The notes: generated by a model not told the origin, from the sequence alone. A DNA stretch of 64,000 nt from Anaerolineae bacterium (GCA_027021705.1 JALUTT010000056.1:64001-128000); one strand, 5' to 3'; numbered from the stretch's first letter, positions 41,271 through 64,000 are shown. Numbers and translations are program-made.

Positions 41271-41425
41271 CGGTGATTGCCCATATCTTTGGAGATAGGG
41301 AGACCGGCCGTCCACGAATGGGGCACGAATACACGAATTAAGGACCCCCTCATTCGTGCATTGGTGAGAAATTCGCGGACGGCCTGCTACGGACCACGCT
41401 CTCGCTCCCTTGTGGGTAATCACCG
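41271..41425. mobile_element. MITE-like element, copy 5 (155 bp, complete, opposite orientation to copies 3 and 4)
   Basis: TIRs CGGTGATTGCCCA / TGGGTAATCACCG; flanking repeat GGAAATTCCC / CGAAATTCCC. Confidence 0.9.
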
Positions 41426-41437
41426 CGAAATTCCCTC

Positions 41438-41466
41438 TTGACAGAATTTCTCAAAGTGGTCATAAT
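41438..41466 (+). promoter_or_regulatory. sigma70 promoter of the acyl-CoA synthetase, adjacent to MITE copy 5
   Basis: TTGACA-17bp-CATAAT. Confidence 0.8.
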
Positions 41467-41514
41467 GGACTTACCTGCCCAGTTCTTACCCCCTGCATCC
41501 AAAGGAGGTTCCCA

Positions 41515-45685: not shown

Positions 45686-45724
45686 GTTGATAGGATTTCA
45701 CCGCGAAACTGATCGGTTTTGATA

Positions 45725-45753
45725 TTGTGGTTCGCCTCTCCCCCTCCTATAAT
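45725..45753 (+). promoter_or_regulatory. Putative promoter of the formate dehydrogenase operon
   Basis: TTGTGG-17bp-TATAAT. Confidence 0.5.
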
Positions 45754-45958
45754 TACCTCAAGTTCCTCCGTGCCTCCCCCCGCTCGATCCACCATTACGC
45801 AAGACGTACACCATTGCGAGTGAAGAGGGCGTTTCCCAGCCTCCCGGGCGGACTCCTAATCCGCCCGGTCCTGCCGGGCGTGCCCTCCTGGCGGGTTGTG
45901 GACCCGTCTGGAGTCGCGTTGTCCAACCGTTGAGTGCTAAGGAGGAGGTGAGCACGCG

Positions 45959-48955: not shown

Positions 48956-48956
48956 T

Positions 48957-49757
48957 ATGGGCAAGGTTGCGATGCTGATAGACACCTCCAAGTGCACCGG
49001 CTGCCGGGGATGTCAGGTGGCCTGCAAAGAGTGGAACGACCTGCCGGCGACCACCACGACCAACTGGGGCAGCTACGAGAACCCGCCCGATCTATCGGCC
49101 TCCACCTGGACCCGCATCTCCTTCCACGAGGTGGCCGATGACCGGGGTGTGCGCTGGCTCTTCTTCAAGGAAGGGTGTCTGCACTGCACCGAGGCGGCCT
49201 GCGTCGAGGTGTGCCCCACGGCCGCCCTCCAGTACCACGAGATGGGCTTCGTCTCGCTGGACGAGGATCGCTGCAACGGCTGTGGCTACTGCGTCGAGTT
49301 CTGCCCCTTCCAGATCCCCCGCCTGGAGATCAACCCCCTCACCGGTCAGGGCAAGGCGTACAAGTGCACCCTCTGCCAGGACCGGGTGACCAACGACCTG
49401 ATCCCGGCCTGTGCCAAGACCTGTCCGGCCAACGCGATCCAGTTCGGGGATCGGGAGGCGATGGTGACGATGGCCCAGAAGCGGGTGGAGGAGTTGAAGG
49501 CCATCGGCTACACCAACGCCGTCGTCTACGGGGACAAGGAGCTGGGCGGGCTGGGCCGCATCTACGTGCTGATGGAGCGGCCCAGCGTCTACGGCCTGCC
49601 GGAGAACCCCCAGGTTCCGGCCTTGACCCGTCTCTGGCAGAAGGGGATCCAGCCCTTCGGCTACGCCGCCGTGGGGCTGACCCTCCTGGGGCTGGGCTTC
49701 AACTGGGTGGTGCAGCGCCGGGTCGCCCGGGCAGCAGAAGCGGAGGAGGAGGGCTAA
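48957..49757 (+). CDS. fdnH: Formate dehydrogenase beta (Fe-S) subunit with C-terminal TM anchor
   Basis: CTGCRGCQVAC, CLHCTEAACVEVC, CNGCGYCVEFC and KCTLC..R...PACAKTC. Confidence 0.93.
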   Translation: MGKVAMLIDTSKCTGCRGCQVACKEWNDLPATTTTNWGSYENPPDLSASTWTRISFHEVADDRGVRWLFFKEGCLHCTEAACVEVCPTAALQYHEMGFVSLDEDRCNGCGYCVEFCPFQIPRLEINPLTGQGKAYKCTLCQDRVTNDLIPACAKTCPANAIQFGDREAMVTMAQKRVEELKAIGYTNAVVYGDKELGGLGRIYVLMERPSVYGLPENPQVPALTRLWQKGIQPFGYAAVGLTLLGLGFNWVVQRRVARAAEAEEEG

Positions 49758-49758
49758 G

Positions 49759-50421
49759 ATGGAAGAGCGATATGTGAAGCGGTTCTCGGCCAGCGAGCGG
49801 TTGGCCCACTGGTTGCACTTCCTGGCCTTCACCGTGCTGCTGGGCACGGGCGGCTTTCTCTACATGCCGGCGTTGCAGCCCTTCACCGTCGGCACCGCCG
49901 GCGAGGCGGCCCGGCTGGCCCATCGCGTGGCGGCCGTCGTCTTCATCGCCTGCCCCCTGATCTACCTCATCGGCGACCCCAAGGGCTTCTTCTACAGCCT
50001 CCGAGAAGCCTTCTCCTGGGGGGCCGAGGACGTTCAGTGGCTGCGGCTGGCCTGGTGCTACTACACGCGGGGGGCCAAGTGCGCGGGCATCCCCCCCCAG
50101 GGCAAGTACAACGCCGGCCAGAAGCTCAACGTCCTCACCCAGATCGTCGCCTTCATCCTCTTCACCGTCACCGGCCTGATTATGTGGTTCGGCCACGGTG
50201 TGGTGTCTCCAGCCCTCTTCCGCTGGGCGGTGATCATCCACGACCTGAGCGTGACGGCGGTGCTGGTCCTCTTCCTGCTGCACCTCTACCTGGTAGCCAT
50301 CCACCCCTTCACCCGCGAGTCCATTATGGCGATGTTCGAGGGGGTGGTGACCCGCGAGTACGCTCAGGAACACCACGCCCGCTGGTACGAGGAGATGAAG
50401 GCCGGCGGTGAGGCCGGATAA
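49759..50421 (+). CDS. fdnI: Formate dehydrogenase gamma subunit (cytochrome b)
   Basis: ERLAHW, GKYNAGQK, heme His ligands and HHARW. Confidence 0.93.
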   Translation: MEERYVKRFSASERLAHWLHFLAFTVLLGTGGFLYMPALQPFTVGTAGEAARLAHRVAAVVFIACPLIYLIGDPKGFFYSLREAFSWGAEDVQWLRLAWCYYTRGAKCAGIPPQGKYNAGQKLNVLTQIVAFILFTVTGLIMWFGHGVVSPALFRWAVIIHDLSVTAVLVLFLLHLYLVAIHPFTRESIMAMFEGVVTREYAQEHHARWYEEMKAGGEAG

Positions 50422-50477
50422 AAGGGCGGGGGTGGCGGGGGCCGTGCCCTCCGCCACCCCCAACGAGCATCCAGGAG

Positions 50478-51254
50478 GTGCCTGTGGCCCGGAGCATCGA
50501 GGGCCTGCTGGAGGCGCTGCGGGAAGCCCGCTCCCGAAACCCCCAACTGGCCTCCACGATAGCGTTCTACGTCGCCCTGCTGGAGGCGCAAGCCCGAACG
50601 GCCCTGCCCGACCTCCCACCGCCCCCATCGCCGGAGGCGGCCCGCCGGGCGCTGGCCGAGGGGCGTCCGCTCATCGAGTTGACCCCCCTGCCGCTGGACG
50701 CGCCGGCCCTGCGGGCGCTGGCGGACGAGGTCTGCACCATCACCGCCCGGCACCGCCCCGAACTGGCCGAGGCCCTGGAAGCCATCCGCGCCCGCCTCTC
50801 CGACGGGGGTCTCCTCGACGAAGGGACCTTCGCCGACGAGGTGGGGGCCTTCGTGCGCACCCAGGCGTGGCGGCCCTTGCTGCGGGCCTGGGCTGCCCGG
50901 ATGGCCGAGCAGGTGGAGATCGCCGACTGGCGGCAGCCCATCTGCCCCTTCTGCGGCAGCCCCCCCGACCTGGGGGCCCTGGGGGCCGAGGACGGCCGGC
51001 GCTACCTGCTCTGCAGCCGCTGCGACACCGAGTGGGCCTTCGCCCGCGTCGCCTGCCCCTTCTGCGGCGACACCCGCCACCAGGCCTACTTCCCCGGCGA
51101 GGACGAGCGGTACCGCCTCTACGTCTGCGACGCCTGCAAGCGCTACCTCAAGGTGGTGGACCTGCGCCGGGGGTGGCGTCCCGTGATGCTGCCCGTCGAG
51201 CGGGTGCTCACCATCCCGATGGACCTGGCCGCCCGCCAGGCCGGTTACCGGTGA
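50478..51254 (+). CDS. fdhE: Formate dehydrogenase maturation protein FdhE
   Basis: CPFCGS, CSRCDTEW, CPFCG and CDACKRYLK. Confidence 0.9.
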   Translation: MPVARSIEGLLEALREARSRNPQLASTIAFYVALLEAQARTALPDLPPPPSPEAARRALAEGRPLIELTPLPLDAPALRALADEVCTITARHRPELAEALEAIRARLSDGGLLDEGTFADEVGAFVRTQAWRPLLRAWAARMAEQVEIADWRQPICPFCGSPPDLGALGAEDGRRYLLCSRCDTEWAFARVACPFCGDTRHQAYFPGEDERYRLYVCDACKRYLKVVDLRRGWRPVMLPVERVLTIPMDLAARQAGYR

Positions 51255-51255
51255 G

Positions 51256-52050
51256 ATGGACCGACGCGAGGGAGGACAGGTTCGCACAGGCTACTACCTG
51301 GTCTGGGACAGCCGCTGGGAGCCGGTGGCGGCGGGCGGGGTGCCCGAGGAAGCTCCCCTCACCCTCTACGTCAACGCCCAGGAACTGGTCACGATGATGG
51401 CCACCCCCATCCGGCAGGAGTGGCTGGCCCTGGGCTTCCTGGCCAACGAGGGGATCATCGAGGGGATGGAGGCGGTGCGGGAGGTCCGCGTCTGCCCAAC
51501 GGGCCGGCGCGTGGACGTCTGGCTCCGCTTCACCCCCCGGCTGCCCCGACGGCCCATCCTGACCTCCGGCTGCGGCGGCGGCATCACCTTCGACGACCTC
51601 TCCCGGCAGGTGAAGCCGGTGACCGCCGACCTCCCGGTGACGCCGGCCCAGATCGCCGACCTGATGCGCCGGCTCTACCAAGCCGAAGGGCTCTACCGCC
51701 AGGTGCGGGGCGTCCACACCTCCGCCCTGAGCGACGGGGAGCGGCTGCTGGTGGTGGCCGAGGACGTGGGGCGGCACAACACGCTGGACAAGGTGCGGGG
51801 GGCCTGCCTGATGCAGGGCATCGAGACGGCGGGCCGGGTCCTGCTCTCCACCGGGCGGATCAGCAGCGAGATGCTGAACAAGGCGGCCCGGATGGGGGTA
51901 CCCGTCGTCGTCTCCCGCACCTCCCCGACGAGCCTCTCCGTCGCCCTGGCCCGGCGCTGGGGCATCACCCTCGTCGGCTACGCCCGGCGGGGCCGGATGC
52001 GCATCTACGCCCACCCGGAGCGAATCCTGGACACCGCCCCCCCGCTCTGA
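51256..52050 (+). CDS. fdhD: Formate dehydrogenase sulfurtransferase FdhD
   Basis: TSGCG, EDVGRHNTLDK and TGRISSEM. Confidence 0.93.
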   Translation: MDRREGGQVRTGYYLVWDSRWEPVAAGGVPEEAPLTLYVNAQELVTMMATPIRQEWLALGFLANEGIIEGMEAVREVRVCPTGRRVDVWLRFTPRLPRRPILTSGCGGGITFDDLSRQVKPVTADLPVTPAQIADLMRRLYQAEGLYRQVRGVHTSALSDGERLLVVAEDVGRHNTLDKVRGACLMQGIETAGRVLLSTGRISSEMLNKAARMGVPVVVSRTSPTSLSVALARRWGITLVGYARRGRMRIYAHPERILDTAPPL

Positions 52051-52057
52051 GGCCCCC

Positions 52058-52507
52058 CTACGCCGTCACGTAGGCCAGGGATTGGATGCGCGTGTCGTGG
52101 AGCCGGTCCCGGACGACCTGGGCGACCCGCTGCATCATCAGGTAGCCGAAGCGCCAGTCGGACTCGAACTCCTTCCAGAGCGCCCGGCGCTCGAAGGCGA
52201 CCACCCGGCACGGCGTCAGGGCCTTGGCGCCGGCCGTGGCCGTGTAGGGGGGCACCACCGTGGACCAGGCGAAGGTCTCGCCGGGCCCCAGCGTGCTGAT
52301 GATGCTCTCCCGGTCCGGGAGTTCCACCACGATGGCGACCATCCCCTCCAGGATCAGGTAGAAGGTGTCCAGTTTCTCCCCCTCGTGGAAGAAGTAGTGG
52401 CCGGCCTCCACCTCCACCTCGTCGGCCACCTTGGCCAGCGTCACGAGCTGGTCCGTATCCAGGCCGGCGAAGAAGGGGTACCGCCGGAGCAGTTCAGGCG
52501 AAACCAT
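52058..52507 (-). CDS. Stand-alone cyclic-nucleotide-binding (cNMP/Crp N-terminal) domain protein
   Basis: LRRYPFFAGL, F.EGE, YLILEG and GPGETF; no HTH. Confidence 0.88.
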   Translation of the reverse strand: MVSPELLRRYPFFAGLDTDQLVTLAKVADEVEVEAGHYFFHEGEKLDTFYLILEGMVAIVVELPDRESIISTLGPGETFAWSTVVPPYTATAGAKALTPCRVVAFERRALWKEFESDWRFGYLMMQRVAQVVRDRLHDTRIQSLAYVTA

Positions 52508-52543
52508 CTCCCTCCTCCTCTCTCAACCCCTCAACCCTAACCC

Positions 52544-52643
52544 TTCACCCTCCCGCAGATTAGGCGCGTTTCCAACGCGAAACCGTGCTTCAAATCGCCC
52601 ATCGGGGCTGAAAGCGCCCTCGACCGGTGACCTGTGGGAGGGT
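52544..52643. repeat. ~97-bp palindromic dispersed repeat, copy A
   Basis: Ends ACCCTCCCGCAG / CTGTGGGAGGGT; imperfect reverse complement of 60623-60721. Confidence 0.85.
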
Positions 52644-52657
52644 AGGCATGGATACTC

Positions 52658-53119
52658 TCAACCCGTCACCAGCAGCCTCACCATCTGAGCGCGAGTGGCC
52701 CGGAGACGGCTGACGATGACCTGGCAGACCCGGGTGATGATGGTGCAGCAGAGCTCGGGGTCGGTCTCAAGGAGCCGGCGCAGGTCGTCCCTCCGGACCC
52801 TGACGGCGCTCACCGGGCTGGCACAGCGGGCCGAGGCGGTGTAGACGTAGGGCTCGACGAGGGCCGACCAGCCGAAGAGGTCGCCGGGGGAGAGGATCGT
52901 CACCGGTTCACGCCGGTCCCCGGAGGCATCCATGTTGACCAGGATGTCCACCCAGCCGTCGAGGAGCAGGTAGAAGGTGTGGGCCGGCTCCCCCTCGGCG
53001 AAGATAAGGGTGCCTCGGGGGAAGGAGACCTCTTCGGCAATGGCGGCCAGTTGCCTCAGTGCCCCCTCGTCGAGACCGGCGCAGAGCGGAAAGCGCTTCA
53101 GAACCTCGGGAGAGACCAT
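52658..53119 (-). CDS. Stand-alone cyclic-nucleotide-binding domain protein (paralogue)
   Basis: MVSPEVLKRFPL, IFAEGE and PGDLFGWSAL. Confidence 0.88.
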   Translation of the reverse strand: MVSPEVLKRFPLCAGLDEGALRQLAAIAEEVSFPRGTLIFAEGEPAHTFYLLLDGWVDILVNMDASGDRREPVTILSPGDLFGWSALVEPYVYTASARCASPVSAVRVRRDDLRRLLETDPELCCTIITRVCQVIVSRLRATRAQMVRLLVTG

Positions 53120-53224
53120 CCTACGTCTTGCGTTTCCCGTGCAGCGTGCTCCGCCGCCGGCGGTCCACAGTCGGCGGTCGGCGGTCTGTGGTCGGCGGTC
53201 CGCGGTCGGCTACCGACAGTCGTT

Positions 53225-55249
53225 TCACGCCATCACCAACTCCCGCTCCCGCTCCCGCTCCCTCCCGTCGGGAGAGCGCACGTCCCACAGGATGCCCTCG
53301 ATCTGAGCCATCACCTGCTCGCTGGTGAAGTGGGCGCCGGTGATGGCGGCGCTGGGGCAGGCCGCCACGCAGGTCCCACACCCCTGGCAGAGGGCCGTCA
53401 CCACCTCCGACACCCCCCGGTCCTCGTGGTAGACGATGGCGTTGTAGGGGCAGAGGTTGTTGCAGATGCGGCAGCCGGAGCAGAGCTCCTCGTTGATGTG
53501 GGCCCGCACCGGCTCCATCAGCACCGTCCCCTGGCTGATCAGGCTGGCCACCCGGGCCGCCGCCGCCGCCCCCTGGGCCACCGACTCGGGGATGTCCTTC
53601 GGCCCCTGGCAGGCCCCGGCGATGAAGACCCCCTCCGTCATCGTCGCCACCGGGTCCAGCTTCGGGTGGCGCTCGACGAAGAAGCCGTCGAAGTCGCACC
53701 CCAGCCCGAAGCGCTGGGCCACCTCCCGCGAGTCGTGCCGCGCCTCCAGCCCCGCGCTCAGGATCACCATATCCACCGGGATGCGCCGCTGTACCCCGAA
53801 GAGGGTGTCGTACACCTGGACGATCAGCTTGCCCTCCTCCTCCGGCGTGCGGGCGGCATCGGTCACCTCGGCCACCCGGCCCCGGATGAAGTGGGTCTCC
53901 TCGTCCATCAACCTCCGGTAGAACTCTTCGTACCCCTTGCCGGGGGTGCGGATGTCAATGTAGAAGTTGTAGACCTCGGCGTTGGGCAGCCGCTCGTGGA
54001 CCAGGTGGGCGAACTTGAGGGAGTACATACAGCAGACCTTGGAGCAGTACTCGTGGTAGTTCTTGTCCCGCGAGCCCACGCAGTGGATGATGGCCACGCT
54101 CTGGGGCTCCGTCACCCCATCCCGCAGGACGATCCGACCCCCCGTCGGCCCCGCCGCGTTCACCATCCGCTCGAACTCCAGGCTGGTGAAGACGTTGGCC
54201 AGCCGCCCGTAGCCATACTGGGGAATCCGGCGCGGGTCGAAGAGGTCGTACCCCGTCGCCAGAATGATGTTCCCCACCTCGATCTGCAGGATCTCGTCCT
54301 CCTGCTCGAAGTCTATGGCTTTGGTCGGGCAGAGGATTTCACAGGCCCGACACTTCCCTCGCTCGAAGTAGATGCAGTTCTCCACGTCAATGACGGGGTA
54401 CTTGGGCACCGCCTGGGGGAAGGGGCGGTAGATCGCCTTGCGGTAGCCCAGCCCGGCCTCGAAGACCTCGTCCAGCACCTTCTTGGGGCACTTCTCCTCG
54501 CAGATGCCGCAGCCGGTGCAGAGCTCCTCGTTGACGTAGCGGGCCTTCTTGCGCACGGTGACGGTGAAGTTGCCGATGTACCCCTCCACCTCCTCCACCT
54601 CGCTGTAGCTCAGCAGGGTGATGTGGGGGTGCTGCCCCACCTCGACCATCTTGGGGGTGAGGATGCAGGCGGAGCAGTCGAGGGTGGGGAAGGTCTTGTC
54701 CAACTGGGCCATATGGCCGCCGATGGAGGGCTCCCGCTCGACCAGGTAGACGGGGTAGCCGGCGTTGGCCAGCTCCAGGGCGGCGGTGATGCCGGCGATG
54801 CCGCCGCCGACGACGAGGGTGGCGGGGTTGATCTGGACGGGCAGGGGCTCCAAGGGCTGATGGTGGACGACCCGCTCGATGGCCCCTTTGACCAATGCCT
54901 TGGCCTTCTCGGTGGCCGCCTCCCGGTCGTCGGTGGCCCAGGAGTTGTGCTCGCGGATGTTGGCCATCTCGAAGAGGAAGGGGTTGAGGCCGGCTCGCTG
55001 ACAGGCGGTGCGGAAGGTCTTCTCGTGCATGTGGGGGGAGCAGGCGGCGACGACGACGCGGGTGAGGCCCAGTTCGCGGATGTCCTCTTCGATGAGGTCC
55101 TGGCCCAGGCTGGAGCACATGAACTTGTAGTCGCGGGCCACCGCCACGTGGGGCTGCTCACCGGCCCAGCGGGCGACCGCTTCCACGTCCACCGTGCGGG
55201 CGATGTTCGTACCGCAGTGACAGATGTAGACACCGACTCTCTCAGCCAT
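53225..55249 (-). CDS. hdrA: Heterodisulfide reductase subunit A-like flavoprotein (FAD, multiple 4Fe-4S)
   Basis: VGVYICHCG.NI, VVAACSP..HE, GGGIAG, DKTFPTLDCSACIL, HCVGSRD, YCSKVCC and GPKDIP. ATG at 55249. Confidence 0.95.
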   Translation of the reverse strand: MAERVGVYICHCGTNIARTVDVEAVARWAGEQPHVAVARDYKFMCSSLGQDLIEEDIRELGLTRVVVAACSPHMHEKTFRTACQRAGLNPFLFEMANIREHNSWATDDREAATEKAKALVKGAIERVVHHQPLEPLPVQINPATLVVGGGIAGITAALELANAGYPVYLVEREPSIGGHMAQLDKTFPTLDCSACILTPKMVEVGQHPHITLLSYSEVEEVEGYIGNFTVTVRKKARYVNEELCTGCGICEEKCPKKVLDEVFEAGLGYRKAIYRPFPQAVPKYPVIDVENCIYFERGKCRACEILCPTKAIDFEQEDEILQIEVGNIILATGYDLFDPRRIPQYGYGRLANVFTSLEFERMVNAAGPTGGRIVLRDGVTEPQSVAIIHCVGSRDKNYHEYCSKVCCMYSLKFAHLVHERLPNAEVYNFYIDIRTPGKGYEEFYRRLMDEETHFIRGRVAEVTDAARTPEEEGKLIVQVYDTLFGVQRRIPVDMVILSAGLEARHDSREVAQRFGLGCDFDGFFVERHPKLDPVATMTEGVFIAGACQGPKDIPESVAQGAAAAARVASLISQGTVLMEPVRAHINEELCSGCRICNNLCPYNAIVYHEDRGVSEVVTALCQGCGTCVAACPSAAITGAHFTSEQVMAQIEGILWDVRSPDGRERERERELVMA

Positions 55250-55369
55250 AGCTCTCCCTCCCTCGCTGCGCATTTCGCGTCCGATGCCAGGGGTGGTGTG
55301 CTGCCCACCTTATGTTGCCGACCGCGGACCGCCGACGGACGACCGCTACGCGCAAGCACGCATCGCACC

Positions 55370-57361
55370 TCAGGCCTGCATCGCTTCGTAGACCAACTCG
55401 ACCAACTCCTTGACCACCAGGCGGTCTTCGTAGCCGGTGGTCTTCAGCGCGTCCCGGTACATGGCGACATCCTTGGGGCAGGCGACGACGAGGACCTGCA
55501 CGCCGTCCAGTTGCGCCGCCTCTCGGATGCGGGCCTCGCTGGGGCGCTCCTTGACCTCACCCTCCTCCATCCAGATGCGGCCTCCGCCGGCACCGCAGCA
55601 GAAGGACCGCTCGCGGTGGCGCGGCATCTCGACCAGCGTGCAGCCGGTCGCCTCGATCACCCGTCGCGGCGACTCGTACACACCGTTGTAGCGCCCCAGG
55701 TAGCAGGGATCGTGGTAGGTGACGGTGTAGCCCAGCTTCCGGCCCAGCCGGAGCCGGCCGGAGGTGATCAGCCGGTCCAGCAGCTCGGCGTGATGGAGCA
55801 CCGGACGGTCCCCGATCACCTCGGGCGGGTACTCGTTCTTGAGGGTGTTGTAGGTGTGGGGGTCGGTGGTGACGATGGCCTGGAAGGTGCACCGGCTCAG
55901 CGCCGCGCCGTTCCGCTCCATCAGCATCTCGAAGAGCCCCTCCTCTCCCACCCGGCGCACGTCGTTGCCGGCGCTCCGTTCCCCGTCGTACAGGATGCCG
56001 AAGTCCAGCCCGGCCTGCTGGAAGACCTGGGCCGCCTGGCGCGTCACCTCGACCAGGCCGGCGTGGTAGGAGGCGTAGTCGCCGACGAACCAGAGGTACT
56101 CGACCGCCTCCTTCCGGGCGTCCTTGATCCGGGGCCGGAGGGGTTGGCTCCACCTCGCCCGCATCCGGGGGGATTGACCGAAGGCGTTGCCGTAGCGGGC
56201 CAGGTTGGCCAGCGCCTCCTGGAGCTGCGGGTCCACCTCCCCCTCGTTGACCAGGTAGCGGCGCAGGTCCACGATCAGCGCGACGGGATCGGTGAAGATG
56301 GGGCAGACCTGGGCGCAGGCCCGGCAGCTCGTGCAGGCCCACACCTCCGCCGGGGAGATCAGGTCGCCGTGGAGCGCCCGACCGTTGCCGCGCTGCCACA
56401 GGTGGAGCTTCAGCTTGACCATCAGGTCGCGGGGGGAGAAGGGGAGGCCACTGGCGTGGGCCGGGCACTGGTCCTGGCAGCGGCCACAGCGGACGCAGGC
56501 CTCGAAGTCCAGGATCTGCTTCCAGGTGAAGTCGCGCCAGGTTGCCGCGCCCACAGGACTGCTGTGATAGGCCGGGGCCAGGGCTCCGGCCGGCCCCAGG
56601 GAGCGGAAGAAGATGTTGAGGGGGGCCGCCACGATGTGGAAGAGCTTGGTGAAGGGGATGCTGGCGATGAAGGTGAAGGCCAGCAGCCCGTGGGTGATCC
56701 AGAGGACCAGGTGCAGGGTGCGGCCGGTCGGATCGCCCAGGGCGGCGAAGAGGGAGGCCACGGCGCTCCCCACCGGCGACCAGGCGGCCCAGCTCGGCCG
56801 GAGGACGGCGATGCGCAGCCCCTCGATCAGGTAGCCGGTGAGGGCGATGAGGGCCAGCATGGCGAGGGCGTAGGCGTCCTCCCAGGCGAACTCCCGCTCC
56901 CGCCCGCCCTGCAGGCGCGGCGGGCGGACGACGTAGCGGCGGTAGGCCGCCATGCCCAGGCCGACCAGCAGGAGCAGCCCGAAGAGGTCCAGGACCAGCT
57001 CGTAGAGCACGTAGACCCCGTTGGTCAGGAACTGGAAGCCGAAGAAGAGGCGGGTGATGTCCCAGTCCACCGTCGCCAGCACCGTTCCGGCGAAGAGGGC
57101 GACCATCCCCCAGAAGATGGCCAGGTGCATCACGCCGGGGTAGGGGTCTTGGACCGTTCGGACCTGGGCAATGGCGTGGACGAGCACGGCACGGAGGCGT
57201 GCGCCCAGGCGGTCGGTGCGCCGCTCCGGGCGGCCCATCCGCCAGCGCCGGACCCGGCGGGCGACGCCCAAGAGGAAGATGAGGACCGTCAGCAGCCCCA
57301 AGAGGTACTGACCGACCTCGGCCCAATGGGGAATGTTCCAGAAGGTCTCCCGCACAGCCAT
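55370..57361 (-). CDS. Membrane-bound Fe-S oxidoreductase (NarI-like cytochrome b TM domain + 2x4Fe-4S + CCG domains; HdrF/FadF/EMO-like)
   Basis: N-terminal TM helices with His residues, CVRCGRCQDQCP, CTSCRACAQVCP, YHDPCYLGR and CCGAGG. Confidence 0.9.
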   Translation of the reverse strand: MAVRETFWNIPHWAEVGQYLLGLLTVLIFLLGVARRVRRWRMGRPERRTDRLGARLRAVLVHAIAQVRTVQDPYPGVMHLAIFWGMVALFAGTVLATVDWDITRLFFGFQFLTNGVYVLYELVLDLFGLLLLVGLGMAAYRRYVVRPPRLQGGREREFAWEDAYALAMLALIALTGYLIEGLRIAVLRPSWAAWSPVGSAVASLFAALGDPTGRTLHLVLWITHGLLAFTFIASIPFTKLFHIVAAPLNIFFRSLGPAGALAPAYHSSPVGAATWRDFTWKQILDFEACVRCGRCQDQCPAHASGLPFSPRDLMVKLKLHLWQRGNGRALHGDLISPAEVWACTSCRACAQVCPIFTDPVALIVDLRRYLVNEGEVDPQLQEALANLARYGNAFGQSPRMRARWSQPLRPRIKDARKEAVEYLWFVGDYASYHAGLVEVTRQAAQVFQQAGLDFGILYDGERSAGNDVRRVGEEGLFEMLMERNGAALSRCTFQAIVTTDPHTYNTLKNEYPPEVIGDRPVLHHAELLDRLITSGRLRLGRKLGYTVTYHDPCYLGRYNGVYESPRRVIEATGCTLVEMPRHRERSFCCGAGGGRIWMEEGEVKERPSEARIREAAQLDGVQVLVVACPKDVAMYRDALKTTGYEDRLVVKELVELVYEAMQA

Positions 57362-57398
57362 CTCACCCCATCCTTCGGTTGCTCTGGGTCCGGTTCTG

Positions 57399-58391
57399 TC
57401 ACGCGGCGGCCAGGGCGGGTGCGGACCGGGCCTGGCGGACCTTCTCCGTCAGCACCGGGACCAGGTCGAAGAGGTCCACGGCGGCCCCGTACTGGGCGAC
57501 GTCGAAGATGGGCGCGGCGGGGTCGGTGTTGACGGCGATGATGACCTCGCTGTCGGTGATGCCCTGGACGTGCTCCGGAGCCCCGCTGATGCCCAGGGCC
57601 AGGTAGACCTTGGGCCGGACCCGTTTGCCCGATTTGCCCACCAGCCGCGTCGTCGGCAGCCACCCCTGGTCCACCACCGGGCGCGAGGCGCAGACGACGC
57701 CCCCCAGCGCTTCGGCCAGGGCCTCGGCCAGCGGGAGGTTGTCCTGGTTCTGGATCCCGCGCCCCACGGCGACCAGGATGGGCGCTTTGGCGATGTCCAC
57801 GTCCTCCTCTTCGGGCTCGATGTACTGCTTCAGCGTGATGCGCAGCCCTTCGAGGGATGGGGCGGGCTCCGGGATCACCTCGGGGGGATGGGGGCTCCGC
57901 CCCTGCTCCGGCTTGAAGCCGCCGGGGATCATCGTCACCAGCGCCGTGGGGGCCGGCAGCTCACCCTCGGCCATCAGCCGGCCGCCGCAGATCTGGCTGA
58001 CGAAGGTGAGGGTCCCGTCGTCGGCGCGGAGGGTGCGGCAGTAGCCCACCAGGGGGAGCCCCAGTTGGGCGGAGAGCCGGCCCGCCACATCCGCGCCGAC
58101 GGAGGTCTCGCCCAGGAGCAGCGCCCGAGGGGGCTTTCTCTCCATCAGATCTGCCAGCACTCGCTGGTAGGCGTCCGGCGTGAACTCGGCCAGCGCCGGA
58201 TGGTCCACGTACAGCACCCGGTCGGCGGCCAGGTCCTGGGCCAGCGCCTGGGCGTCGTGGCCCAGCAGCAGCGCGACGACGGGGCCGCCGGTCCCTCGGG
58301 CCAGTTCCTGGGCTGCCGCCAGCATCACGTAGGAAATCTCGGCCACCTGACCGCGCAGGTGCTCCACCAGCACGTAGATTTCCTGGTGCAT
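57399..58391 (-). CDS. etfA: Electron transfer flavoprotein alpha subunit
   Basis: GRG, ASRPVVD, VGKSGK, LGISGAPEH and AVNTDPAAPIF. Confidence 0.93.
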   Translation of the reverse strand: MHQEIYVLVEHLRGQVAEISYVMLAAAQELARGTGGPVVALLLGHDAQALAQDLAADRVLYVDHPALAEFTPDAYQRVLADLMERKPPRALLLGETSVGADVAGRLSAQLGLPLVGYCRTLRADDGTLTFVSQICGGRLMAEGELPAPTALVTMIPGGFKPEQGRSPHPPEVIPEPAPSLEGLRITLKQYIEPEEEDVDIAKAPILVAVGRGIQNQDNLPLAEALAEALGGVVCASRPVVDQGWLPTTRLVGKSGKRVRPKVYLALGISGAPEHVQGITDSEVIIAVNTDPAAPIFDVAQYGAAVDLFDLVPVLTEKVRQARSAPALAAA

Positions 58392-58447
58392 CGGTTCACT
58401 CCTTCCCGTGGTGCATATGGCGTGCTGCCTGTTGCGGGTTGTGGGGC

Positions 58448-59215
58448 TTACGCGAGCACGCCCAACTCCTCGAGGATTCCGACCAGTCGTGTGGCGATCT
58501 CGTCCACATCGCCTTCGAGCATCGTCGCCCGCTCGCCGACCTCGGGCTGGAAGAGCCGGCGCACCGCCGGCCCCCCGCTGGGGTCGAGTTCATCCACGGG
58601 CCACTCCTCGATGGCTGCCGTCTTCATCGCCTGGCGGATCTTGCTGAAGGCGACGTAGCGGGGCGGCTCTTCGGCGGCCTGGATGCCCAGGACGGCGGGG
58701 AGGGCCACTTCCATCTCGGCGAGGAGGGCGCCGGGGTGCTCCTTGCGCACGAGGCATCGGTCCCCCTGCACCCTCACGCCGGCCACGTAGCCGACGTAGG
58801 GCAGGCCCAAGAGCCCGGCCAATTGGGGTCCTACCGGCCCGTCCAGGTCGCTGTGGGCCTGCACGCCCGTCAGCACCAGGTCGGGCTGGAGTTCCCGCAC
58901 CACCGGGGCGAAGGCGCGGGCCAGGGCGTGGTTGTTCACCGTCGGCTCGAAGGGTCCCACCAGCCGGATCAGCCGGTCGGCCCCCTTGGCCGCAGCGGTG
59001 AAGAGCACATCGTCCGCCCCTTCCACGTCGGGAACCACCACCGTCACCTGGGCTCCGTCCCGTTCCTTCAGCAGGATGGCCTGCTCGATGGCGTGGTCGT
59101 CGAACTCGCTGAGGATCAGGCTCAGCCAGGTGGTGTCCAGGGCCGTCCCGCTCTCGTCAATCAGGAGTTCCTCCACCAGATCGGGCACGAGTTTGACAGG
59201 GACCACGATCTTCAT
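58448..59215 (-). CDS. etfB: Electron transfer flavoprotein beta subunit
   Basis: MKIVVPVKLVPD, D..AIEQA, DLVLTGVQA..D and PRY. Confidence 0.92.
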   Translation of the reverse strand: MKIVVPVKLVPDLVEELLIDESGTALDTTWLSLILSEFDDHAIEQAILLKERDGAQVTVVVPDVEGADDVLFTAAAKGADRLIRLVGPFEPTVNNHALARAFAPVVRELQPDLVLTGVQAHSDLDGPVGPQLAGLLGLPYVGYVAGVRVQGDRCLVRKEHPGALLAEMEVALPAVLGIQAAEEPPRYVAFSKIRQAMKTAAIEEWPVDELDPSGGPAVRRLFQPEVGERATMLEGDVDEIATRLVGILEELGVLA

Positions 59216-59254
59216 CGCTGCACCTCACAAAGGTCACGGGTTACGGGTTGCCTG

Positions 59255-60463
59255 TTATGCCTCTTCCATCGCTTCGGCCAGCAGTTCGGCGATGTCCTTG
59301 ACGACGAGCCGGCTGGCCCCCTCGACCATCTTGATGGCGTCCTCGAAGCGGGGGGGCTCGTAGGGGCAGGCCACCGCCAGGATGTCGGCTTTGATGGCCA
59401 CCGCTTCGCGCACGCGCCACTCGGAGAGGCGGACCCGGGCCTTCTCCCACTGGAACCCATCCAGCCACATTCCGCCGCCGCCCCCGCCGCAGCAGAGGCT
59501 GGTGGAACGGTTGTGGGACATCTCCACCAGCGTCACGCCGGGGATGGCTTCCAGGAGTGCCCGGGGCTCCTCGTAGACCCCGTTGACGCGGCCCAGGTAG
59601 CAGGGGTCGTGGAAGGTGACCCGGGCCTTCAGCTCCCGCTTCAGCAGCGGCCTCAGTTGGTCCAGCCGCTCGGCCAGGAACTGGGTGTAGTGGCGCACGG
59701 GGTAGGCGATGCCCAGCTCCGGGTAGGCGTTCTTCAGGGCGTTGTAGGCGTGGGGGTCCGTGGTGATGATCTCGCGGAAGGTGTACCGGCGGAAGGCCCG
59801 TCCGTTCTTCTCGGCCAGCCGCTCGAAGAGGCCGCGCTCACCGGCCAGCCGCAGCGAGTCGCCGTCGCTCTGTTCCTCGGGTCCCAGGATGCCGAAGTCC
59901 ACCCCCAGCGCGTTGAGGACCCGGACCAGGGCCCGGCTGACCCTCTGGACCCGGGGGTGGTAGGAGGCGTAGTCACCGACGAACCAGAGGACATCCACGG
60001 GCCGCCGGACCTGCCGGAGGATGGGGACGGGGGGATCGAGGCCCAGGGCCCAGTCGGCCCGCTTGCGGGGCGACTCTCCCAGGGGGTTGCCGTAGTGCAG
60101 CGTCTTCTCCAGGGCGTCCTGGAGTTCGGTGGGGACGTGGCCGGCCAGGACCATCTCCTCCTTGGTCCGGGCCATCAGGCCGGCGGTGAGGGGGATCTTC
60201 GAGGGGCAGACCTGGGTACAGGCGTAGCAGGAGACGCACATCCAGACCGTGTCGGTTTTCAGCACCCGGTCGAACATCCTGGCCCGCAGCGCGGCGATCA
60301 TCCGGCTGGGGGGGAAGTCCATCAGGTAGCCGAAGGGGCAGACGCCGCTGCAGGTGCCACACTGGAGGCAGGTGCGGATCCGCTCGCCGTCGGCCACTTC
60401 TTGCAGACTGGCGTAGAAGGCCTCGCTGAAGGAGGGCCTTGGGGAGACTATGGTCACGGCCAT
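59255..60463 (-). CDS. Soluble HdrD-like Fe-S protein (HdrC-type ferredoxin + CCG domains)
   Basis: CLQCGTCSGVCP, CVSCYACTQVCP, FHDPCYLGR and CCGGGG. ATG at 60463 after AAGGAGG. Confidence 0.9.
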   Translation of the reverse strand: MAVTIVSPRPSFSEAFYASLQEVADGERIRTCLQCGTCSGVCPFGYLMDFPPSRMIAALRARMFDRVLKTDTVWMCVSCYACTQVCPSKIPLTAGLMARTKEEMVLAGHVPTELQDALEKTLHYGNPLGESPRKRADWALGLDPPVPILRQVRRPVDVLWFVGDYASYHPRVQRVSRALVRVLNALGVDFGILGPEEQSDGDSLRLAGERGLFERLAEKNGRAFRRYTFREIITTDPHAYNALKNAYPELGIAYPVRHYTQFLAERLDQLRPLLKRELKARVTFHDPCYLGRVNGVYEEPRALLEAIPGVTLVEMSHNRSTSLCCGGGGGGMWLDGFQWEKARVRLSEWRVREAVAIKADILAVACPYEPPRFEDAIKMVEGASRLVVKDIAELLAEAMEEA

Positions 60464-60519
60464 CGAGCACCTCCTTGGCTGGTGCACAGGGGACGACACC
60501 GCTTCTCACGCTCGCTTCC

Positions 60520-60549
60520 ATTGTACTGTATCCCTGGGGTGAATGTCTA
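60520..60549 (-). promoter_or_regulatory. Putative promoter of the hdr-etf operon
   Basis: Minus strand TAGACA-18bp-TACAAT. Confidence 0.5.
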
Positions 60550-60622
60550 TGGGGGAACCTCCCCCTTTGCCGCCGGGAAGCCCCCCCTTTGAGGTGGGGG
60601 GAGGTGTCTACGAGTGGGGGTG

Positions 60623-60721
60623 ACCCTCCCGCAGGTTGCCGGTCGAGGGCGCTTTCGGCCCCGATGGGCTGTCTGAAGCACGGTTTCGCGTCGGAACACG
60701 TCTAACCTGCGGGAGGGTGAA
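60623..60721. repeat. ~97-bp palindromic dispersed repeat, copy B
   Basis: ACCCTCCCGCAGGTT...AACCTGCGGGAGGGT; inverted relative to copy A. Confidence 0.85.
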
Positions 60722-60773
60722 CAGTTACGAGGGGGGTATGGATGATGGGCAGGGGAGGTCTGGGGGGCAGCGC

Positions 60774-60873
60774 AGGCCGTCCACGAATGGGGCACGAATA
60801 CACGAACTCACGAATAGCCCCCATAGGGGCGCTGCCCATTCGTGCATTCGTGAACACAATTCGTGGACGGCCT
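60774..60873. repeat. Stand-alone palindromic core related to the MITE interior (no TIRs)
   Basis: AGGCCGTCCACGAAT...GCACGAATACACGAA...ATTCGTGCATTCGTG...ATTCGTGGACGGCCT. Confidence 0.8.
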
Positions 60874-60898
60874 CTTTGCTACCTCGCTACGCCGCCGC

Positions 60899-60928
60899 TT
60901 GCAACGCCGCCGGAGAGTGTGGTATACT
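60899..60928 (+). promoter_or_regulatory. Promoter upstream of the sacsin-like gene
   Basis: TTGCAA-18bp-TATACT with an extended TG. Confidence 0.55.
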
Positions 60929-61054
60929 TGGGGGGAGCACTGCGGATGGGTGATGGGTGGCGGCCGGCCGACCTCTTCCATTCGTTCATTCGTTCACCAC
61001 TCGTCGTCCAATCCCACCCCACGCCGCCACGCAACCCGCAAGCTGGGAGGGGTT

Positions 61055-64000
61055 ATGCTAAAGTCAGAAACTGGCATAACAGCAATTTACGAGCGCATCC
61101 GTGAGCGAAATAAGAAGCTATGGGGAACCAACCGGTTGAGGATCGTCCGCGCATTGGGTACTGACCTGCGTGCGACGATGCGAGATTTGGTTATGGAGCT
61201 CGTTCAGAATGCTGAGGATGCAGAAGCCAAGAAACTGGGCTTCCACCTGAGCGATTCGGGTCTTCTGGTTTGGAATGATGGGCATATGTTTACAGAGAGA
61301 GATGTAGAGGCCATCTCCGGCCTGTTGGTGTCCACAAAGGATGCCCGCTCCATAGGGCACTTTGGCATCGGATTCAAGACTGTGCTCTTGGTCACAACCC
61401 GCCCATACGTTCTCTCTGGTCGTTTTCGCTTTTGGCTTGAGGGAGCTCTTGACCCCTACCCCATTGATAGGAACAGCGCAACCCAGATCCCGCAAGAGGC
61501 CCATAAGCTGGCTGACGCAGGTAAGACAGTCTTCTGGCTGCCCTTCAAACCAGAAATCAGGCAAGAGGCCCAACGAGTGCTCAGCTTTCTAGAAGGGGAG
61601 ACCACTGACAAGCTCTTGCTGTTCTTAGACCACTTAGAAGAAATCGAGGTAGAGGGTGTGAATGGTCGGAATGAAGCTGGCAAACATCAAGCCCTTTACC
61701 TTGCCTCACGGCGCCCCTATCCAGGGGCCGCAGGGGAGGAATGGAAGGTCTATAAAGTGTCGTTCTTGTTTCAAACCGACAAACGAGAGGGAGAAAGCAC
61801 CTGGTTGCGCCTTGATCGTTTTGTTGTGCTTCCCGAGGAAGTGAAGCAAGAACTGATCAATCGGCTCCGTGCGGAGGGGGACGAAGAGGGTGCAAAACGG
61901 TGGGAGAAAGTTGATGCTTCCGTATTACAGCGCATTTCTGTAGCCTTTCAAATCCAAGAGGAAGAACGTAATGTGAAGATGCAACCCGCAGAAAGAGGCT
62001 TCGTGTTTGTCCGCCTTCCTACCCGACAGGAAACGGGCTTGAAATTCCACCTGAGTGGGCGGTTTGCGGCAACTTTAGACCGGGCCGGTGTTCGTGAGGA
62101 TGATCCGTTGACCCAGTGGGCATTGGAAGAAGCCATCCACACGGTCCGGCAGCTACCCGATCAACTACGGTCTCTTGGCGCATTTCCTCCTTCAGTCTGG
62201 CAGATTTTCCCCCGCGAGATTGAAGGTAGGGCTCCTTTCCTCAGAATCGCATCGGAGTTACGTGAGGCTCTGCGCAGCGGTTCTTATTTCCATGACGCAG
62301 AAGGTAGCCCTCGCTTGAAGGAAGAGGTATTTCTTGCTCGCACTTCAATGCTCTACTCTCTCCTCGGTCCGGCTGAATTGGAGGAATTAACGGAGATTCC
62401 CGGTGCCCGTTGGGTACATCCTGAATTGCGAAAGGGCAGAGCCAAAGAGGTAGTCTCCAGCCTCGGTGTGCAAGAGATATCGGCACGGCACGTAATCGCG
62501 TGGTTAGAAAGCAAAGAGGACACTTGGTTTGCTTCACGCTCCCCCGAGTGGCTGGGCAAGCTGTACCAGTACTTGGCATCCCAGAAAGACCTTCATTCCC
62601 GTGCGGGCCAATTACCTATCGTTCTTCTGCATAGTGGAAAGTGCGTTCAACCCGAACATGCGCTCTTCCCCCCCTCGAAACTCCCTAAGAACCTAAAACC
62701 TTTCATTCATCACCTCCTCCTTGTGGCAGATACGGTCACGGAGGATCAGGATACACACAGAGCGCTGCGTGACCTCGGAGTGCAGGAATTCCAAATCAGT
62801 AGAGCTTTACACCATCTCTTTCGTGCCCTTTATGGGGATCAAACGTCGCCGCCTCCCCCTCAAGAGAATCGCCAGCACATTCGGATGCTCTTCTCTTTGT
62901 GGAAGGAGGGGGAAGTCGCCCCAGCCGATTTGAAAAAGTGGAGTCGTCTCCCCCTTTTACGTACCCAGTATGGTGATTATCAGCGGCCATATCGGGTCTA
63001 CTTGCCTGCCGGCTTGGGTGGATTGTCAGAGGTCGAGATGTACTTCCGGCTTGCCGGAGGCCGGCCCTTTGTGGCCGTTGATTACAGGGATGGAGAGGAG
63101 CCCGATGATTGGAAACAGTTCCTCTCTTTGCTCGGTGTGCGCAATCTTCCGACTATAAGCGAGGATCCTTTTTCAGAAGTCGGGGAACGAGAAGCAAGGG
63201 AATGGTTCAGCGAGCGGGAACCAGACCGAAAACTTCCACGTAGTAGTACAGGCCGTTATTCAGGATTAGACTGGACGATTGATGGTTTTCAGGAAGTACT
63301 CAATGCACTTCGCCAGGGCTTAAGCATTGAAGATATCCGGGCAATCTGGGTGGTAATGGGGCACCTCATCAGCTCGGAGGAGGATATACTGACCGATTAT
63401 GGCGCTCGGTTACCCGATTATGGCGCTCAGTTATATGAGGCGATCCTGTACTTTTACTACTATAAAGGGCAGAACGAGCGTATCACAGCCTATTGGCTCA
63501 GACGCTTGCAGGATATCCCCTGGCTTCCTGATGAAGAAGGGCATCTGGCACGTCCTGCTAATCTCTTCGCCCCTTATTTGAAGCCCTTCTTGGGACCGGG
63601 ATTGCGATATCTGCACCAGCGCATCCCCTTGAGCAAGAAATACGAGAAGTTAGCTCAGTTGCTCGAGCTTCGTGTGGCTGCCGATGTGGATACCGTGTTG
63701 AAGTACCTGCGTTCCCTAGCCGGAGAGGACCGGTGTACTATATCCCAGGTCTCTCCCGTCTACGAGTGGTTGGCGGAACAGCGTGAAAGCACCAAACGCA
63801 TCAAAAGTGCCTTTCAGAGTGAAGCGTTGATCTTGATCCCCGACCAAGGATGGTTTCGTACCGATGAGGTGTGTTGGCTGGATCGTACCCACGTAGTTCC
63901 CTCCCTGATGGAAGCGTGGGGAGAAACTCAGCTCAAGCCCTTCTTTTTGCAGATGGTAGGCGTTCAGGAGGAACCTCAACCGCACCATCTGGCTAGATAT
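61055..64000 (+). CDS. Large sacsin/NOV-type GHKL (HSP90-like) ATPase protein, 3'-truncated by the window
   Basis: Not in the ORF track, consistent with no stop before the window end. ATG 61055 after GGGAGG gives ...MELVQNAEDA...VWNDGHMFTERDVEAI...SIGHFGIGFKTV...LPT..ETGL.FHL.G.F. The last codons in this frame read VQEEPQPHHLARY. Confidence 0.88.
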   Translation, partial: MLKSETGITAIYERIRERNKKLWGTNRLRIVRALGTDLRATMRDLVMELVQNAEDAEAKKLGFHLSDSGLLVWNDGHMFTERDVEAISGLLVSTKDARSIGHFGIGFKTVLLVTTRPYVLSGRFRFWLEGALDPYPIDRNSATQIPQEAHKLADAGKTVFWLPFKPEIRQEAQRVLSFLEGETTDKLLLFLDHLEEIEVEGVNGRNEAGKHQALYLASRRPYPGAAGEEWKVYKVSFLFQTDKREGESTWLRLDRFVVLPEEVKQELINRLRAEGDEEGAKRWEKVDASVLQRISVAFQIQEEERNVKMQPAERGFVFVRLPTRQETGLKFHLSGRFAATLDRAGVREDDPLTQWALEEAIHTVRQLPDQLRSLGAFPPSVWQIFPREIEGRAPFLRIASELREALRSGSYFHDAEGSPRLKEEVFLARTSMLYSLLGPAELEELTEIPGARWVHPELRKGRAKEVVSSLGVQEISARHVIAWLESKEDTWFASRSPEWLGKLYQYLASQKDLHSRAGQLPIVLLHSGKCVQPEHALFPPSKLPKNLKPFIHHLLLVADTVTEDQDTHRALRDLGVQEFQISRALHHLFRALYGDQTSPPPPQENRQHIRMLFSLWKEGEVAPADLKKWSRLPLLRTQYGDYQRPYRVYLPAGLGGLSEVEMYFRLAGGRPFVAVDYRDGEEPDDWKQFLSLLGVRNLPTISEDPFSEVGEREAREWFSEREPDRKLPRSSTGRYSGLDWTIDGFQEVLNALRQGLSIEDIRAIWVVMGHLISSEEDILTDYGARLPDYGAQLYEAILYFYYYKGQNERITAYWLRRLQDIPWLPDEEGHLARPANLFAPYLKPFLGPGLRYLHQRIPLSKKYEKLAQLLELRVAADVDTVLKYLRSLAGEDRCTISQVSPVYEWLAEQRESTKRIKSAFQSEALILIPDQGWFRTDEVCWLDRTHVVPSLMEAWGETQLKPFFLQMVGVQEEPQPHHLARY

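Follow-up and report, generated by a model that had tools for sequence, protein, structure and literature searches.

Background

Many non-methanogenic bacteria possess Mvh-type (group 3c) hydrogenases associated with HdrA. To our knowledge, these bacteria have no CoM-S-S-CoB, and for this reason the downhill acceptor of a bifurcating enzyme in a non-methanogen is an open question. Here we describe a cluster of seven genes at positions 52058–60463 of a 64,000-nucleotide stretch of DNA (the "window", JALUTT010000056.1:64001-128000, i.e. C56:64001-128000) from the metagenome-assembled genome (MAG) of an Anaerolineae bacterium (GCA_027021705.1; 5.19 Mb, 94.9% complete, 4.5% contaminated). The cluster codes for a soluble HdrD-like iron-sulfur protein, both subunits of an electron-transfer flavoprotein (Etf), a membrane protein of the EMO/EtfD type, a full-length HdrA and two cyclic nucleotide (cNMP)-binding-like proteins. 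We hold with moderate confidence that it represents the menaquinone branch of a hydrogenase-linked system for electron bifurcation built on HdrA, in which case it would probably show the destination of the "easy" hydrogen electron in non-methanogens.

The MvhADG-HdrABC complex of hydrogenotrophic methanogens (PDB 5ODC, 8RVU) uses a full-length HdrA for H2-driven bifurcation to ferredoxin, with CoM-S-S-CoB as the high-potential acceptor; hdr and mvh genes have been accepted as one system even where they are not co-localized (PMC6085437). Type II sHdr systems of sulfur oxidizers show the published arrangement shdrC1B1AHB3-etfAB-emo, the B3 protein being a C2-B2 fusion with room for no more than a single noncubane cluster (Tanabe et al. 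2024, PMC11094781). In solved EMO/EtfD proteins, noncubane clusters transfer electrons, the FAD of ETF docks at the NCB domain, and a histidine occupies the site where HdrB binds its substrate (PMC13083937; preprint 10.64898/2026.08.18.745454). Their distal cluster is a linear 3Fe-4S cluster in M. smegmatis EtfD (PDB 9OJN, PMC13083937) and a 4Fe-5S cluster in S. aciditrophicus EMO (preprint 10.64898/2026.08.18.745454). FixABCX/EtfABCX complexes, finally, carry the bifurcating flavin in Etf, use NADH as donor and EtfCX as quinone reductase, and deliver the downhill electron to menaquinone (about −74 mV) and the uphill electron to ferredoxin (PMC10734219).

The cluster and its HdrA

All seven open reading frames (ORFs) are located on the minus strand and are closely spaced, the gaps between them amounting to 39, 56, 37, 96, 105 and 150 bp, of which 127 bp of the last belong to a repeat element. 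They code for the HdrD-like protein (59255–60463), the small (beta) subunit EtfB (58448–59215), the large (alpha) subunit EtfA with its ET-FAD domain (57399–58391), the EMO/EtfD-type protein of 663 amino acids (aa) (55370–57361), a 682-aa HdrA (53225–55273), and the two single-domain cNMP-binding-like proteins (cNMP1, 52658–53119; cNMP2, 52058–52507). The domains found with Pfam and NCBIfam match those named in the preliminary description of the locus, and its assignment of these genes to one co-oriented cluster is confirmed. No mvhD, hdrB, flx or acyl-CoA dehydrogenase gene was detected inside 52058–60463 by ORF and domain scans, and a hidden gene of this kind is excluded because the intergenic gaps are too short.

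HdrA scored 860 bits against the NCBIfam HdrA2 model and 737 bits against PDB 8rvu_a, to which residues 11–663 align over the full length. Its N-terminal, inserted ferredoxin and C-terminal ferredoxin domains are all present, as are the FAD site and the cysteine motifs of six Fe-S clusters; with none of these features lost, the protein is therefore a candidate bifurcating flavoprotein. Translation may in fact begin at the ATG at 55249. The window contains neither HdrB (with two complete CCG motifs) nor HdrC or MvhD/G/A, but these are encoded on another contig of the same genome, C142, in the order hdrC-hdrB-hdrA-mvhD-mvhG-mvhA, followed by genes for a maturation protease and a cNMP-like protein.

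The hdrA genes of the window and of C142 share 96% nucleotide identity over 2015 bp, i.e. over all but the first ~10 codons, while their flanks are unrelated (dS 0.09, dN/dS 0.28). The differences are patchy: codons 39–245 are identical at the nucleotide level, changes cluster at codons 297–318 and 443–494, and no Cys residue is altered. This mosaic looks like the outcome of gene conversion between the two copies. In a tree of HdrA proteins (29 rows, quick method), the copies within one genome were sisters in the source genome (G000, support 82) as well as in G024 (93) and G036 (99); those of G040 fell into different subclades. Such a topology would fit an older hdrA paralogy that was homogenized in some lineages.

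The genome agrees with the MvhADG-HdrABC system of methanogens in combining a full-length HdrA with group-3c-type mvhDGA and hdrCB (C142), and the proposed principle, bifurcation to ferredoxin driven by H2, is shared. The window cluster differs in that an HdrC/HdrB fusion with one cluster of the non-catalytic type, EtfAB and a membrane-bound EMO replace HdrBC, and in that menaquinone takes the place of CoM-S-S-CoB as the proposed high-potential acceptor.

Iron-sulfur proteins and Etf

The membrane protein scored 283 bits against 9ojn_A, the M. smegmatis EtfD. It has a NarI-like cytochrome b domain (Pfam Nitrate_red_gam, residues 84–254), and H79 and H242, both invariant in the EMO alignment, presumably correspond by their position to the haem ligands of solved EMOs. 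Two cubane 4Fe-4S motifs, C289/292/295/299 and C343/346/349/353, are likewise invariant and precede an NCB/CCG domain whose proximal noncubane site comprises C553, C588, C589, C628 and H502, equivalent to C637, C672, C673, C709 and H583 of 9OJN. The fifth proximal ligand is D631 (CPKD) where 9OJN has C712. All ligands of the distal cluster have been lost, C503, C538, C581 and C584 of 9OJN being replaced by D428, S463, D500 and T503. This loss does not exclude the protein from the EMO/EtfD group, because the distal cluster has been called variable and is absent in FadF and DgcB (PMC13083937). The window protein thus shares with EMO/EtfD the NarI-like haem b domain, both cubane clusters, the NCB domain with proximal noncubane cluster and histidine, and the adjoining etfAB genes, but differs from the M. 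smegmatis and S. aciditrophicus proteins in the missing distal site, the Asp as fifth ligand, the soluble paralogue alongside and the lack of a β-oxidation context.

That soluble paralogue, the HdrD-like protein with two 4Fe-4S motifs and a CCG domain, scored 177 bits against 9ojn_A, and its residues 21–133 scored 60 bits against HdrC (8rvv_C). It shows the same pattern as the EMO: no Cys is left in the first CCG motif, and the second ends in Glu (CPYE). Throughout the HdrD-like/B3 family, Glu occupies the position of the fifth ligand (32 of 32 proteins), and the ligand residues and the blocking histidine (H238) are invariant. The methanogen HdrD of HdrDE has two complete CCG motifs as a catalytic pair and HdrE as partner, and the HdrD-like protein does not conform to it. 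In both window proteins the first CCG motif had been described as degenerate and the second as intact; the former is borne out by the replacement of the four distal ligands, but the latter needs correction, since the second motif reads CPKD in one protein and CPYE in the other.

A thiol/disulfide substrate, as had been considered in the preliminary description, is unlikely for either protein, because both are of the EMO/EtfD type, with one noncubane cluster each and the blocking histidine retained. Their common architecture suggests instead that the soluble HdrD-like protein is, like the EMO, a partner of ETF. The predicted complex of the HdrD-like protein with EtfA and EtfB reached a score of 0.77, as compared to 0.68 for a control in which EtfA was replaced, and thus speaks neither for nor against such a partnership.

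The class of the Etf was assigned from published motifs and comparisons with PDB entries. Bifurcating Etfs of group 2 carry the motif RPxFGG in the large subunit, and their small subunit has RxGV and GxxSPTxV; T. maritima EtfABCX requires the Arg of RPxFGG to reduce ferredoxin (PMC10734219). In the window EtfA the RPxFGG motif reads SQICGG, with Ser in place of Arg (consensus of 29 family members, SQxxGG), even though the protein scores highest against bifurcating Etfs (163–173 bits, versus 146 bits for W3A1 ETF). The best PDB match of EtfB is 1o94_C of the non-bifurcating W3A1 ETF (112 bits, versus 87 bits for 5ol2_B); it reads GPFEPTVNNHALA where 5ol2_B and 4kpu_B carry the ..GADT.ATS region, and the motifs of the Bf-FAD region are missing. 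The Etf accordingly falls outside the group-2 bifurcating type, a placement that had been raised for checking, and is probably a plain carrier with one FAD. The proposed system would share with FixABCX/EtfABCX a mid-potential donor, menaquinone as downhill and ferredoxin as uphill acceptor, but with HdrA in place of Etf as the bifurcating candidate and the EMO as quinone reductase.

Relation to type II sHdr loci

The genome contains a second quartet of the same kind on contig C99 (L001:855-16635), embedded in the gene order dsrE, dsrE, lbpA, shdrC1, shdrB1, a shdrA coding for 368 aa, shdrH, B3, etfB, etfA, emo, lbpA, lplA. Judged by its gene content, this is a sulfur-oxidation locus of type II sHdr in complete form; a gene for an NrfD/4Fe-4S fusion protein adjoins it. 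The window proteins are 51% (B3), 54% (EtfB), 52% (EtfA) and 45% (EMO) identical to their C99 counterparts, and the window quartet is a paralogue of the sHdrB3-etfAB-emo module. It agrees with type II sHdr in the order B3-etfB-etfA-emo and in the clade to which its EMO belongs. A type II sHdr system is recognized by the synteny of shdrC1B1AH, B3 and etfAB (PMC11094781), of which the window has the B3-like gene, etfBA and emo only; shdrC1, shdrB1, a short shdrA, shdrH, lbpA and a sulfur-transferase gene are missing, and the 682-aa HdrA is of the methanogen type, unlike the 368-aa sHdrA.

A tree of 92 EMO rows (quick method) was split into clades of 48 and 44 sequences (SH-aLRT 100), the latter consisting of the classical EMOs. 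Every one of the 22 EMOs linked to HdrA belongs to the clade of 48, as do 13 of the 15 labelled as sHdr-associated, the other two having received this label solely from a nearby GCV_H-like match. Within this clade, the window EMO groups with those of loci L025 and L026 (support 98). When the ligand positions known from EtfD of M. smegmatis (PMC13083937) were mapped onto all 92 rows, 41 of the 48 clade members had no Cys at any of the four distal positions and Asp as the fifth proximal ligand, with the histidine kept; the remaining seven, which have no Etf or Hdr neighbours, showed the full Cys set. None of the 44 classical EMOs has Asp at the fifth position (Cys in 41, gapped in 3).

Conservation of the cluster

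The distribution of the cluster was followed in two surveys, and the frequencies given below describe the loci examined, not taxa. Within the class, 41 genomes (G000 included) were searched, the 20 best full-length EMO matches were taken and 27 query proteins were mapped; an EMO-like match occurred in 37 of the 41 genomes. A scan of GTDB with the EMO alignment, restricted to one genome per species, yielded more than 584 matches, of which the best 80 were analysed. Among these 80, the closest matches derive from Chloroflexota/Anaerolineales MAGs, hdrA accompanies a window-type EMO at 19 loci, and 13 loci belong to type II sHdr. Together with the window and loci L005–L007 from the class survey, 23 loci or genomes contain a window-type EMO and hdrA, and the HdrA-EMO block, usually accompanied by mvhDGA, extends, as judged by record titles, over at least seven phyla (Chloroflexota, Zixiibacteriota, Ignavibacteriota, Verrucomicrobiota, Bacteroidota, Acidobacteriota, Planctomycetota). 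The synteny survey proposed in the preliminary description hence shows a block that is kept together.

In nine of the 23 loci, mvhDGA directly follows the cluster's own hdrA, as in G024, where the order is HdrD-EtfB-EtfA-EMO-HdrA-MvhD-MvhG-MvhA and then two cNMP genes. Four others have the EMO gene followed by genes for a sensor kinase, a hybrid kinase and a receiver and then by hdrC-hdrB-hdrA-mvhDGA; the three intervening genes were identified in two of the four (L025 and L030). A second hdrA occurs in the locus or genome in seven cases, six of them with mvhD adjoining, whereas in two cases, for which the locus only was viewed, hdrA is followed by unrelated genes; in the last one (L031), the contig ends within hdrA. 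G040 and G036 share the form of the window, without mvh after hdrA. A separate hdrCBA-mvhDGA-cNMP locus is present in each of G024, G036 and G040, and in G039 the cluster is cut off at a contig end while another contig begins with hdrA-mvhDGA. The proposal that this HdrA has no MvhD or HdrB partner therefore holds for the window locus but not for the genome, with hdrCB and mvhDGA on C142, nor for the loci with mvhDGA behind hdrA. An HdrB match was missing in two of the five genomes with the single-cluster form (one query; genome completeness not given), and HdrBC can apparently be missing from carriers of the module. In an Ignavibacteria MAG (L044:7065-9798), NuoE-like and NuoF-like genes are inserted between two hdrA genes, an arrangement that may point to a variant linked to NAD(H).

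Genes for stand-alone cNMP-binding-like proteins are found repeatedly behind mvhA or hdrA, in the window, on C142, in G024, G036 and G040 and in L062, and the two window proteins are thus predicted to be conserved accessories. The cNMP2 protein is 65% identical to the one encoded behind mvhA and the maturation protease on C142. The best PDB match of cNMP1 is 3mdp_A, deposited under a generic cyclic nucleotide-binding domain name; its phosphate-binding cassette is non-canonical, reading FGWS...PYVYTAS where chains of the CRP family read FGEL...PRTSS, so that Trp and Tyr/Thr replace Glu and Arg.

Proposed electron flow and alternatives

In the reading that we prefer, MvhAGD encoded on C142 would oxidize H2 and feed the FAD of HdrA, which would split the electron pair. 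The uphill electron would leave through the inserted ferredoxin domain of HdrA to ferredoxin. The downhill electron would enter the HdrC-like domain of the HdrD-like protein and pass to its single noncubane cluster and on to the FAD of EtfAB; Etf would then shuttle to the equivalent cluster of the EMO, from which the electron would reach menaquinone via the two cubane clusters and then haem b. The HdrD-like/Etf/EMO chain would replace, or act beside, HdrBC and the disulfide as high-potential acceptor, and the reaction is expected to be reversible. MenA scored above its family cut-off in the genome, which fits a menaquinone user. A homologue of CdhC/AcsB, an enzyme dependent on reduced ferredoxin, is likewise in keeping with this reading, as is the use of menaquinone (about −74 mV) as an acceptor by the bifurcating EtfABCX (PMC10734219).

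Several points weigh against this proposal. The mvhDGA genes are absent from the window locus, and in five of the 23 loci hdrA stands beside the EMO and HdrD-like genes and is then followed by unrelated or cNMP genes. The need for an Etf between two Fe-S proteins is unexplained, the contact between HdrA and the HdrD-like protein is assumed by analogy to that of HdrA with HdrC, and sequence alone does not reveal in which direction the electrons flow. Moreover, MenA is the sole menaquinone-synthesis gene found in the 94.9% complete genome; MqnA/D were not found and MenD stayed below the cut-off, which in a genome of this completeness does not show their absence.

Tentatively, the model may be carried further, although we regard this extension as doubtful: one Mvh might serve two downhill exits, the disulfide via HdrBC and menaquinone via HdrD-like/Etf/EMO, through hdrA paralogues kept interchangeable by gene conversion and possibly forming an asymmetric HdrA heterodimer. 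The HdrD-like protein might then be a dedicated ETF-docking adaptor, with a carboxylate-ligated noncubane cluster of a type not yet described.

Flavin-based bifurcation is reversible, and the same complex could run backwards, with electrons from menaquinol or reduced Etf and from reduced ferredoxin converging on HdrA and leaving via Mvh as H2; this would allow the disposal of quinol-level electrons in fermentative or syntrophic growth. A reverse redox loop between EMO and a membrane formate dehydrogenase (FDH) has been described for S. aciditrophicus (preprint 10.64898/2026.08.18.745454), and an FDH-N-type operon adjoins the cluster. That operon is convergent with the cluster and not co-transcribed with it, and there is no acyl-CoA dehydrogenase gene in the cluster. 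The genome moreover contains a homologue of the acetyl-CoA synthase CdhC/AcsB (C92:58811-59272), an enzyme which consumes reduced ferredoxin. On balance we consider the reverse direction unlikely. Since the window and the four loci like it are without mvhDGA, a complex independent of hydrogenase also has to be considered, in which another donor (reduced ferredoxin, or a dehydrogenase via Etf) would reduce menaquinone through HdrA, the HdrD-like protein, Etf and EMO. The mvh genes are lacking at the window, L007 (G040), G036, L045 and L047, and the NuoE/NuoF-like genes between the hdrA pair of L044 would suit another donor. Yet all five genomes checked (G000, G024, G036, G040, G039) have mvhD beside another hdrA, and the window hdrA has been kept 96% identical to the Mvh-linked copy, which makes such independence improbable.

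An ordinary β-oxidation route, from an acyl-CoA dehydrogenase via Etf and EMO to menaquinone with hdrA as a chance neighbour, is very improbable. EMO/EtfD with EtfAB does form the characterized route of fatty-acid electrons (PMC13083937; preprint 10.64898/2026.08.18.745454), and an AMP-binding, acyl-CoA-synthetase-like gene is located at 41410–43137. But the window EMO belongs to a clade apart from the classical EMOs with its own ligand signature; in seven phyla the block has stayed together with hdrA and with an additional, soluble paralogue of the EMO; and the genome, which offers no acyl-CoA dehydrogenase gene in this cluster, has a further EMO on C27 and further Etf pairs on C97 and C144. 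The least probable of the readings considered is that the quartet serves as a second electron exit of the organism's own sulfur-oxidizing sHdr system, as its 45–54% identity to the C99 quartet and the shared EMO clade could suggest: no shdrC1/B1/A/H, lbpA, dsrE or lplA gene occurs in the window, C99 already carries its own module, and the partner in the window and in 22 other loci is a full-length HdrA.

All parts of the proposed menaquinone branch are of known kinds, the quartet having been published in sulfur oxidizers and EMO/EtfD structures having been solved, and to this extent the earlier notion of an uncharacterized module has to be narrowed; what stands is the combination of full-length HdrA, Etf and a quinone-linked membrane protein, kept together across phyla. 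Literature searches, with supplements not covered, retrieved no paper on an Mvh/HdrA-HdrD-like-EtfAB-EMO cluster. New are the presumed supply of the hydrogenase in trans, together with two hdrA copies that look like products of gene conversion, the single clade uniting Hdr-attached EMOs, and the Cys-to-Asp/Glu ligand signature. An HdrA wired via Etf and an EMO-type protein to menaquinone would be a concrete, testable answer to the question of the downhill acceptor and, if true, would tie the reduction of ferredoxin by hydrogen directly to the quinone pool of respiration. In that case the block B3-Etf-EMO, known from sulfur oxidizers, would be a general exit module for Hdr-type flavoproteins, and the diagnostic signature (distal cluster lost, Cys replaced by Asp/Glu) may be used for annotating such systems.

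Assembly support and repeats

The order of the genes is backed by contigs from public sequencing runs. A 5421-bp contig of run X1, which is identical to the window, covers 55202–60622, and the junction of EMO and hdrA is bridged by contigs of three runs from two studies (X1; X2 and X3 from the other study). The junction of hdrA and cNMP1 is bridged in one run, by a 715-bp contig of X1 (52624–53338); X1 is possibly the source sample of this genome and is then not independent. Inside hdrA the contigs are fragmented and the depth is ~1.7-fold, which is to be expected if two near-identical copies are present. An assembly chimera at hdrA was rejected, the contigs bridging both hdrA junctions.

The ATG of the HdrD-like gene at 60463 is preceded by AAGGAGG, and a sigma-70-like promoter match (60520–60549, minus strand) lies 57 bp upstream of it. 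Consensus scans of this kind are weak evidence: one such site was found in the region, as compared to 0.6 expected by chance, and no terminator-like site was detected on the minus strand of the cluster region.

Copies of an element resembling a miniature inverted-repeat transposable element (MITE), ~105–127 bp in length, are located between the two cNMP genes (52530–52656, 127 bp) and at 60623–60727; the element occurs at least 177 times with a length of 90 nt or above, spread over 81 of the 183 contigs. Precisely the copy between the cNMP genes is missing from contigs in runs X2 and X3, where 8 bases are shared at the joint, and this copy therefore appears to be a recent insertion in this strain. 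A mobile 8-kb unit bordered by the MITE pair was considered and rejected in view of the copy number. Inverted repeats of 33 nt (53181–53213 and 55314–55346) flank hdrA exactly; they belong to a GGTCGGCGGTC-type motif with ~19 other intergenic sites in the genome. A cassette formed by hdrA between these repeats was likewise rejected, as the motif recurs ~19 times elsewhere and hdrA adjoins the EMO and HdrD-like genes in other phyla.

Genomic surroundings

The FDH-N-type operon next to the cluster (45959–52050) comprises fdnG, fdnH, the cytochrome b gene fdnI, fdhE and fdhD, with 7 bp between the convergent stop codons. An in-frame TGA at about 46517–46519 of fdnG, within the motif HQARI*HSAT, probably codes for selenocysteine and causes plain ORF calling to split the gene. 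On the other side, an ORF for a sacsin-like protein of 1508 aa with an N-terminal ATP-binding domain extends from 60863 to 64000 and continues to C56:129389. It is located in an island of ~5–6 kb with a GC content of 0.53–0.59, compared to ~0.70 around it, and may have been acquired horizontally. An rRNA as cause of the GC-poor end of the window was rejected, the region being a protein gene; Rfam searches over 44000–64000 gave nothing at the gathering score.

On contig C92 (L003:6643-15604), a 1583-aa ORF composed of several HdrA-like segments is followed by mvhD and hdrC/hdrB. It lies ~7.8 kb downstream of the CdhC/AcsB gene, with several ORFs in between, and looks like a Wood-Ljungdahl-linked Hdr. 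Elsewhere in the window, a VKOR-family gene and an adjoining gene for a DsbA-like thioredoxin (7893–9061) represent a quinone-linked system of disulfide-bond formation, as would fit a menaquinone user, and a response regulator consisting of a receiver fused to an adenylate/guanylate cyclase domain is encoded at 902–2074, on the stretch that also carries the cNMP-like genes.

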